A stretch of 64,000 bases of DNA. Source: Escherichia coli. GTDB taxonomy: Bacteria > Pseudomonadota > Gammaproteobacteria > Enterobacterales > Enterobacteriaceae. Shown here piece by piece: positions 9,467 to 9,770 of the stretch (its first letter is position 1; every line of letters starts with the position of its first letter). A program made the translations under genes and the position numbers. Below the pieces are notes generated by a model that saw only the letters and a program-made list of their open reading frames with translations, made no database searches and was not told where the DNA came from. The stretch lies in assembly GCF_003790525.1 (NCBI RefSeq), contig NZ_CP033635.1; one strand, given 5' to 3'.

Positions 9467-9752
9467 AAGGAGTCCCTCCGCACTGTCTGAAACAGTACAG
9501 AAATGTCTTCAGGCGTGGCGAAGCCTTACCTGAAGGTAATAAAGCTGAGCAGGGACGTTAAAACGTCACGGCCTTACGCATCCGGTAACGCCGTGAAAAG
9601 ACGGGCTTACCGGAAAAGTTTTAATCTCCGTCGAGGGAGAGGCGTGGGATCAGGTTCCATATAACCTCCGGTAAGTGAAAAAAGCGCCGCAAATAATAAG
9701 GAGAATCCAATAATATTCGTAGCATCTATGGCGATATAATACCTGCTGGCAA
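9467..9752 (-). promoter_or_regulatory. mgtA 5' leader (Mg2+- and proline-sensing leader/riboswitch region containing mgtL)
   Basis: Long untranslated region between the PhoP-box promoter and the mgtA start, containing the proline-rich leader ORF. Confidence 0.7.
9607..9660 (-). CDS. mgtL: mgtA leader peptide MgtL (17 aa)
   Basis: C-terminal 17 codons of ORF 9607..9948 from ATG (revcomp 9658-9660) read [17 protein letters not shown]. Confidence 0.85.
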
Positions 9753-9770
9753 CTAAACCAACGATAAACC
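9753..9770 (-). promoter_or_regulatory. PhoP box upstream of mgtLA
   Basis: Minus-strand sequence GGTTTA-tcgtt-GGTTTA (revcomp of ctaaaccaacgataaacc), a direct repeat matching (T/G)GTTTA-N5-(T/G)GTTTA; a -10-like tattatatc follows at 9733-9741. Confidence 0.8.

Follow-up and report, generated by a model that had tools for sequence, protein, structure and literature searches.

The regulatory region of mgtA lies at 9467-9770 on the minus strand of the window, by which we mean the whole 64-kb stretch of DNA that was analysed. A first-pass annotation, made from the sequence alone, had described a complete mgtA regulatory leader at this place. All of the elements that it claimed were found, and its only omission was the strand, which it did not state. 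The regulated gene, mgtA, occupies 6770..9466 on the minus strand and encodes a Mg2+-importing P-type ATPase as an ORF of 898 aa. The gene is intact and scores 1607.5 bits against the NCBIfam equivalog TIGR01524, for which the cut-off is 610.75. A Shine-Dalgarno sequence for mgtA, GGAGGG, can be read at 9474..9479 (minus strand), 7 nt 5' of the ATG. On the other side of the regulatory region, treR (TIGR02405, 590.7 bits) is divergent, with its start at 9845, and treB comes next.

As a whole, the window is chromosomal E. coli DNA that runs collinearly with K-12 4.42-4.48 Mb, in the opposite orientation. It carries a two-gene insertion at 45.1-48.0 kb, for which searches with PADLOC, Pfam and NCBIfam gave no matches. 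Three other ORFs overlap the regulatory region and we did not accept any of them as a gene, as they are unannotated in RefSeq. Two are on the plus strand (9438..9533 and 9503..9664), and the third, of 113 aa at 9607..9948 on the minus strand, is the mgtL frame prolonged upstream to the preceding stop, across the promoter and into treR.

The mgtA promoter and its identity with K-12

The PhoP box is a perfect direct repeat of GGTTTA around the spacer TCGTT (GGTTTATCGTTGGTTTA), at 9770..9754 on the minus strand, in the -35 position. When we looked for GGTTTA-N5-GGTTTA with zero or one mismatch, this was the single occurrence in the 64-kb window; the chance expectation per window, from dinucleotide-preserving shuffles, is 0.01 for an exact box and 0.35 with at most one mismatch. 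The -10 hexamer, TATTAT, is at 9741..9736 on the same strand, exactly 12 nt 3' of the box. The first-pass annotation had read both the perfect repeat and the -10 element correctly. A generic scan of 9400-9900 found no sigma-70 promoter with a -35 hexamer, which is expected because the activator box takes the place of the -35.

A single (T/G)GTTTA-N5-(T/G)GTTTA box in direct orientation, spaced by about 12 nt, is the arrangement called 'architecture I', and it is what we see here. Table 1 of PMC3335776 gives the Salmonella mgtA box as TGGTTTATCGTTGGTTTAA, in direct orientation and class II ('architecture I'), and the same paper gives 12 nt as the distance to the -10 hexamer and 264 nt as the leader length; it also cites gel-shift evidence that PhoP binds this Salmonella box. 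The 17-mer core of the box and the 12-nt spacing are the same in Salmonella and in the window. In the 52 related leaders that we describe below, the second PhoP half-site is invariant and TATnAT is at least 90% conserved. In E. coli itself, strains deleted for phoP or phoQ no longer induce mgtA (PMC5740661). Judged by its sequence, the locus is a PhoP-activated class II promoter that depends on its activator.

The first-pass annotation had proposed a comparison with the annotated K-12 leader, and had named divergence at the key elements as what would speak against its reading. We aligned window 9860..9440 (minus strand) with K-12 MG1655 NC_000913.3 4467231-4467651. There are 5 differences in 421 columns, all outside the part that starts with the -10 hexamer and runs up to the mgtA ATG, so the transcribed leader is 100% identical and divergence at the key elements is absent. 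The K-12 counterpart of the mgtL-mgtA leader is NC_000913.3 4467361-4467624, with mgtL (b4702) at 4467431..4467484 and mgtA (b4242) from 4467625. The PhoP box, the -10 hexamer, the transcribed leader, the MgtL peptide, the mgtA start and the divergent treR are all the same as in K-12. Among the differences, two bases lie upstream of the PhoP box and one falls in codon 7 of mgtA; another, at window 9749, is a C where K-12 has T, in the spacer that separates the box from the -10 hexamer. We expect the spacer change to have no functional consequence.

Megablast against complete E. coli genomes found the region in 5425 of 5426; it was at least 80% covered in 5423 of these 5426 and at least 99% identical in 5291 complete genomes. 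Some E. coli genomes are 100% identical to the window, and RefSeq annotates mgtL, mgtA and treR within the matched region.

Could the resemblance have arisen by chance, or could this strain carry a decayed leader that no longer functions? The sole point in favor is the C/T difference from K-12 at 9749, and it is set against a transcribed leader with no change from K-12, the low chance expectation for the PhoP box, the match to the Rfam leader family described below (E = 5.5e-25), an intact mgtA and the presence of identical sequences in other E. coli genomes. We regard this explanation as close to inconceivable. By sequence, the locus is the native mgtL-mgtA promoter and leader of the K-12 type, an orthologous allele of a region that is already known. 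Because the transcribed leader is the same as that of K-12, it is ordinary and can be used as a positive control for annotation, a use for which it had been suggested and which the comparison bears out. For the same reason, the sequence of this strain adds nothing on the Mg2+ sensor or on Rho in E. coli.

The mgtL ORF and the fold of the leader

The mgtA 5' leader runs over about 264 nt (9467..9730, minus strand). We place its start at about 9729/9730, with the probable +1 at ~9730, 6-7 nt past TATTAT, from the position of the -10 hexamer and because, with the mgtA ATG at 9466, a 264-nt leader, as in Salmonella, would begin there. Within it, mgtL occupies 9660..9607 (minus strand), and its translation gives 17 codons and a stop, with an EPDP motif and four Pro codons. 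The peptide is identical to K-12 b4702, so the 17-codon ORF that had been read from the sequence is confirmed. A Shine-Dalgarno sequence, GGAGG, is at 9669..9665 (minus strand), 4 nt 5' of the ATG, and the stop codon at 9609..9607 falls inside CCGGUAAG. From the mgtL stop to the mgtA ATG, the distal leader (9606..9467, minus strand) is exactly 140 nt, which agrees with the earlier estimate of about 140 nt. The ORF has the features by which MgtL is recognized: a length of 15-17 codons, the start M-[DE]-P-[DE]-P, Pro codons, its own Shine-Dalgarno sequence and a position within stem A. We also scanned NCBIfam with the peptide duplicated to reach the 20-aa minimum, and this uninformative scan gave no family match.

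With cmscan, 9675..9560 (minus strand) matches Rfam RF01056 (Magnesium-II), a three-way junction made of stem A and stem-loop B. The match reaches 125.8 bits, where the gathering score is 40, and covers model positions 1-115 of 115. The parts that characterize this family are all present, namely stem A around two small hairpins, stem-loop B, an exclusive helix C, and mgtA downstream. The 264-nt leader has an MFE of -87.3 kcal/mol, with z = -4.27 against shuffles.

In the MFE fold, the 5' arm of stem A (CUUACCGGAGG, 9665..9675, minus strand), which holds the GGAGG of mgtL, pairs with 9616..9606. This 3' arm (UUUCCGGUAAG, 9606..9616, minus strand) overlaps the mgtL stop, so that stem A encloses mgtL together with the two small hairpins. 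Part of the 3' arm (9614..9607) is also the 5' arm of stem C. Stem-loop B is at 9568..9594 (minus strand), with arms 9594..9585 and 9577..9568, and a segment of its 5' arm, UUACCGGA (9588..9581), is the 3' arm of stem C. In stem C, UCCGGUAA (9614..9607) pairs with UUACCGGA, and there is an inner helix of 4 bp. Stem C is therefore incompatible with both A and B.

The MFE fold of the Rfam segment is A+B, at -38.8 kcal/mol versus -32.1 kcal/mol for C, and the MFE of a longer segment holds stem C. Stem C is predicted once the 5' arm of stem A is blocked. When we constrained the fold with a ribosome footprint, which is a crude thermodynamic proxy only, a P site at codon 3 gave stem C and a P site at codon 17 gave stem B. 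These folds match the published logic, where early abortion of translation is ON and completed translation is OFF. The predicted folding thus reproduces the published switch between A+B (OFF) and C (ON).

One item goes beyond the curated model. Hairpin D (9554..9567, minus strand), with arms GACGU and ACGUC around a UUUA loop, abuts stem B and is followed by a conserved CCCUG, in a stretch that is unpaired in the RF01056 model. A version with six pairs was discarded, since its loop of 2 nt is sterically impossible, and we kept five pairs. Hairpin D is probably already in published secondary-structure drawings and we make no claim that it is new.

To compare related leaders, we scanned one genome per species with a degenerate mgtL pattern, which gave 57 loci. 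In 51 of the 57, a PhoP-type direct repeat lies 74-124 nt upstream of an ORF of 15-17 codons that is followed by mgtA, and in most of these the mgtA start is about 190-200 nt after the mgtL ATG. All but one of the 51 come from named Enterobacteriaceae genera. The exception (L015) is a soil MAG labelled only 'Proteobacteria bacterium', and we kept it because the mgtL-mgtA arrangement is present. It is one of six pattern matches outside the lineages of the family. The other five (L017, L022, L028, L030 and L037, from Sphingomonas, Nonomuraea, Boseongicola, Opitutaceae and Actinacidiphila) were excluded as chance matches: they lie inside long ORFs and lack both a PhoP box and mgtA. The N-terminal M[DE]P[DE]PTPLP is invariant among the retained loci, a circular result because the search pattern imposed it.

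The structure alignment holds 53 sequences and the conservation profile 52 full leaders. For A, B and hairpin D together, 96.1% of cells are paired over the 53 sequences and 10 pairs have double-sided changes; none of 500 shuffles was as high and slid controls were 40-47% paired. Taken singly, stem B has 97.7% of its cells paired, with compensatory double changes at 6 of 10 pairs, and hairpin D has 92.1%, with compensatory changes at 3 of 5 pairs. Stem A is paired in 96.4% of cells and 7 of its 11 pairs never vary; stem C is paired in 88.5% and its outer 8 pairs are mostly invariant. Covariation is silent on stems A and C, for or against, because their cores do not vary. Invariant pairs are what we would expect, because each strand serves two helices as well as a Shine-Dalgarno or coding sequence.

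Conservation along the leader comes in islands, which are the second PhoP half-site, TATnAT, the arms of stem A, stem B, hairpin D and a GUCCCUG run that begins in the 3' arm of hairpin D. The 5' arm of stem A is 99% identical in the 52 leaders and CCGGUAA is invariant in the 53 sequences. The initial 55 nt of the leader, at 0.52, and the distal leader, at 0.55, are far less conserved over the same 52 leaders.

Mg2+ sensing and the end of transcription

The outline of how such a locus works is agreed in the literature: PhoQ/PhoP act at the promoter, and the leader, with mgtL, switches between A+B at high Mg2+ and C at low Mg2+ (PMC11552253). We hold it to be highly probable that the native E. 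coli mgtA promoter and leader form a two-tier control by Mg2+, with Rho-dependent termination as the most likely way in which transcription ends.

In the first tier, low periplasmic Mg2+ would act through PhoQ to put phospho-PhoP on the GGTTTA-N5-GGTTTA box at the -35 position. Phospho-PhoP would then bring RNA polymerase to TATTAT, giving a transcript with a leader of ~264 nt. Others have demonstrated this tier in E. coli and Salmonella; in our analysis it is read from sequence only. For the second tier, our analysis supports the structure, and the signal transduction is taken from the literature. When Mg2+ is sufficient (OFF), ribosomes would finish the 17 codons of mgtL up to the stop codon. 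A ribosome at this stop codon is inside CCGGUAAG and would for that reason block stem C, so stems A and B would form and transcription would stop before mgtA, around leader nt 216. When cytoplasmic Mg2+ is low or, as has been proposed, proline-tRNA is limiting, the ribosome would abort or stall at the N-terminal EPDP motif and the Pro codons. Stem C could then form between the 3' arm of A and the 5' arm of B, which would allow readthrough into mgtA (ON).

Whether the RNA senses Mg2+ directly or through translation of mgtL has been described as not fully understood (PMC11552253), and later work has Mg2+ sensed by mgtL translation via the EPDP motif and the proline codons (PMC11552253, PMC11282234, PMC5740661). 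In E. coli, the EPDP motif of MgtL makes the ribosome intrinsically unstable within the first six residues; low Mg2+ or the lack of bL31 strengthens this effect, and EttA counteracts it (PMC11282234; bioRxiv 10.1101/2021.02.02.429294). An mgtL mutant with E2Q/D4N abolishes expression of an mgtA reporter in E. coli, and control of mgtA by mgtL translation has been seen on the identical K-12 sequence (PMC11282234; bioRxiv 10.1101/2021.02.02.429294).

The alternative is a pure Mg2+ riboswitch, in which the RNA would bind Mg2+ and shift between A+B and C without mgtL translation, and mgtL would serve as an additional input, such as one for proline or for osmotic stress. Rfam does class RF01056 as a riboswitch aptamer, and for Salmonella mgtA in vitro, Mg2+-dependent RNA folding by itself modulates Rho termination, according to the summary given in PMC11552253. 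The closeness in energy of the A+B and C folds, with stem C in the MFE of the longer segment, is also consistent with it. This reading has to explain why mutations in the acidic residues of EPDP abolish reporter expression in E. coli (PMC11282234), why EttA and bL31, by way of mgtL translation, change the amount of MgtA (PMC11282234; PMC11552253), and why the mgtL ORF, its Shine-Dalgarno sequence and a stop inside CCGGUAAG recur in 51 species. We think that a pure riboswitch is unlikely and prefer a switch in which mgtL translation takes part, perhaps together with sensing by the RNA. The earlier description of the locus as a textbook Mg2+/proline-sensing system is right in that this is a known Mg2+ leader. 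Proline sensing is a disputed proposal among several for the input, and PMC5740661 cites one study that called a response to proline into question.

The word attenuation needs a similar qualification. It fits as the name of a leader switch and does not fit in the classical sense of an intrinsic terminator: a scan of 9400-9900 found no intrinsic terminator-like site on either strand, and we rejected an attenuator of the trp type because there is no GC-rich hairpin with a U-tract in the leader.

Published K-12 data place RNA 3' ends in the leader. Through the identical alignment, a Term-seq 3' end at K-12 4467576, which is 49 nt upstream of the mgtA ATG, corresponds to window 9515 (minus strand), at leader nt ~216. 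PMC7815308 combined K-12 Term-seq with bicyclomycin DirectRNA-seq, and its supplementary file 3 gives this end a Rho score of 1.56, with 'significant Rho termination region: Yes', and an intrinsic terminator score of 1.46, where the threshold is 3. A second, strong Term-seq 3' end, at K-12 4467490, is window 9601, 6 nt past the mgtL stop and just 3' of stem A. This end could be a pause, a processing site, or a stable leader RNA that contains mgtL and has a role of its own.

For the Salmonella leader, Rho-dependent termination is established (PMC12360218; PMC8964686). Because the Salmonella data are joined by one E. coli data set, we consider Rho to be most likely the terminator in E. coli as well. 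The OFF state in E. coli might instead do without Rho, through pausing and RNase processing or degradation, or by a Rho-independent mechanism that uses conserved elements of the leader. ChIP-qPCR with Rho R66S in E. coli gave a termination score of 1.0 at mgtA although RNA polymerase occupancy drops there (PMC5499598). The authors of that study considered a Rho-independent mechanism, or an R66S mutant without effect at the mgtA site, and the second option would leave the result compatible with Rho. A review states that the mechanism 'may not be conserved in E. coli' (PMC12360218), a second Term-seq 3' end maps to 9601, and the reference list of PMC11552253 includes a title on RNase E targeting of the Salmonella mgtA transcript. 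Against these points, the 3' end 49 nt upstream of mgtA lies in a significant Rho termination region in the bicyclomycin data. Its position at nt ~216 is close to that in Salmonella corA, which terminates at about nt 220, and for Salmonella mgtA the same paper reports similar sites (PMC11552253). Stem B and hairpin D have pyrimidine-rich, G-poor stretches on their flanks; these are short only, namely the A-B linker and 9560-9531, the latter made up of 33% C and 10% G. Taking both sides together, we find an OFF state without Rho rather unlikely.

A more specific version would have the E. coli leader end or be processed outside the Salmonella Rho pathway, with hairpin D and CCCUG (9567-9549) as the effector and a possible contribution from the end at 9601. 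We put forward this version as quite improbable, and keep Rho as the most likely terminator.

Comparison with known leaders

The main value of this locus is calibration, as a known regulatory region was correctly read from raw sequence, the strand aside. Import of Mg2+ is controlled here twice, by PhoQ/PhoP acting on the promoter and by the switch of mgtL and RNA within the leader, and the mgtA leader is a model for converting what a ribosome does on a very short ORF into a decision on transcription.

The closest known relative outside E. coli is the Salmonella enterica mgtA leader, the experimentally dissected prototype of RF01056. It has the same A, B and C helices, a leader of ~264 nt, and an mgtL that lies inside stem A and has a stop codon falling in CCGGUAAG. 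At the loci of two Salmonella subspecies, the mgtA ATG is 194 nt after the mgtL ATG, as in the window. The Salmonella loci differ in the MgtL peptide, which is MDPEPTPLPRWRIFLFR. The distal leader is only ~55% conserved across genera, and Rho dependence is proven in Salmonella and disputed in E. coli.

The leader in front of corA in E. coli and Salmonella, with its corL uORF, has the same plan of a three-way junction around a uORF and a choice of A+B versus C(+D). Its rut sites flank stem B, and it has been described as structurally very similar to mgtA (PMC11552253). It is a separate gene and locus, outside the window, and differs in having a constitutive promoter that is not PhoP-dependent. 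The corL uORF also differs from mgtL, with a single conserved proline and a UUG start.

The trpL, hisL and pheL attenuators resemble the mgtA leader in that translation of a short leader ORF chooses between alternative helices. They differ in their terminator, since the mgtA leader is without an intrinsic terminator hairpin and U-tract, and in their signal, which for mgtA is Mg2+-dependent ribosome stability or proline decoding and not a run of regulatory codons for an end product.

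Predicted pairing and a 3' end in the mgtA leader

Two 5' arms in the mgtA leader (window 9675-9568(-)) are near-repeats of each other: that of stem A (CUUACCGG; arms 9675..9665 and 9616..9606) and that of stem-loop B (GUUACCGG; arms 9594..9585 and 9577..9568). The MFE structure of a 138-nt segment pairs CUUAC, from the 5' arm of A, with GUAAG, from the 3' arm of B, over 5 bp. If stem C were to form (the alternative helix between the 3' arm of A and the 5' arm of B, which excludes both A and B), the freed 5' arm of A and the freed 3' arm of B are predicted to be able to pair, giving a four-strand swap as in that MFE structure. 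This rearrangement is only predicted, and would be blocked by a ribosome occupying the leader-peptide ORF mgtL.

Published Term-seq data for K-12 MG1655 (PMC7815308) include a 3' end at position 4467490 with a read count of 7758. This position corresponds to window 9601, which is 6 nt past the mgtL stop codon and directly 3' of stem A, and a CUUUUC run comes after it. This end could reflect a pause or trimming by an exonuclease as far as stem A, or it could mark a stable leader fragment containing stem A and mgtL. It is not taken up in the available part of the source's main text.

Other Rfam matches

Our scan of the window gave other Rfam matches, and those listed here are all above the gathering score: the ES239 sRNA (39680-39802(-), 150.5 bits), the RpsF leader (62409-62493(-), 110.1 bits), the STnc450 sRNA (36271-36328(+), 77.2 bits) and naRNA4/CssrE (26579-26655(-)), which at 63.6 bits is barely over its threshold of 59.5.

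Differences from K-12

Between ytfB and rplI, a strain-specific island some 9.4 kb long (51472-60919) stands in place of K-12 yjfZ. It encodes an SDR protein resembling 3-ketoacyl-ACP reductase, a xylose-isomerase-like TIM barrel protein, an enoyl-CoA hydratase, a FadX-like CoA-transferase, an FAD flavoprotein of 693 aa and a DctQ/DctM/DctP TRAP transporter, and a TetR-family regulator (51089..51814(-)) spans its left boundary. The island appears to be a cluster for the catabolism or uptake of some organic acid.

The ytfE-cycA interval holds a two-gene insertion (45048-47928) that is absent from K-12. Its proteins, of 497 aa (45092..46585(-)) and 461 aa (46618..48003(-)), are both "hypothetical protein" in RefSeq and had no matches in Pfam, NCBIfam or PADLOC. 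This insertion is a variable island: 269 of 5426 complete E. coli genomes cover at least 80% of it and 628 have any match, mostly at 90-95% identity.

The window lacks a counterpart of the K-12 gene ytfI (~1.2 kb, 4437.5-4438.7 kb), whose flanks are joined directly at ~38868-38873. Identity to K-12 is just 81% across 1-1098, in the yjgL region, compared with ~97% elsewhere in the window. Either a divergent allele of yjgL or a recombination boundary may explain this. Finally, K-12 has only a cybC pseudogene where the window (17214-18319) carries about 0.7 kb of extra sequence and an intact cybC for cytochrome b562 (17933..18319(-); PF07361, 115 bits).
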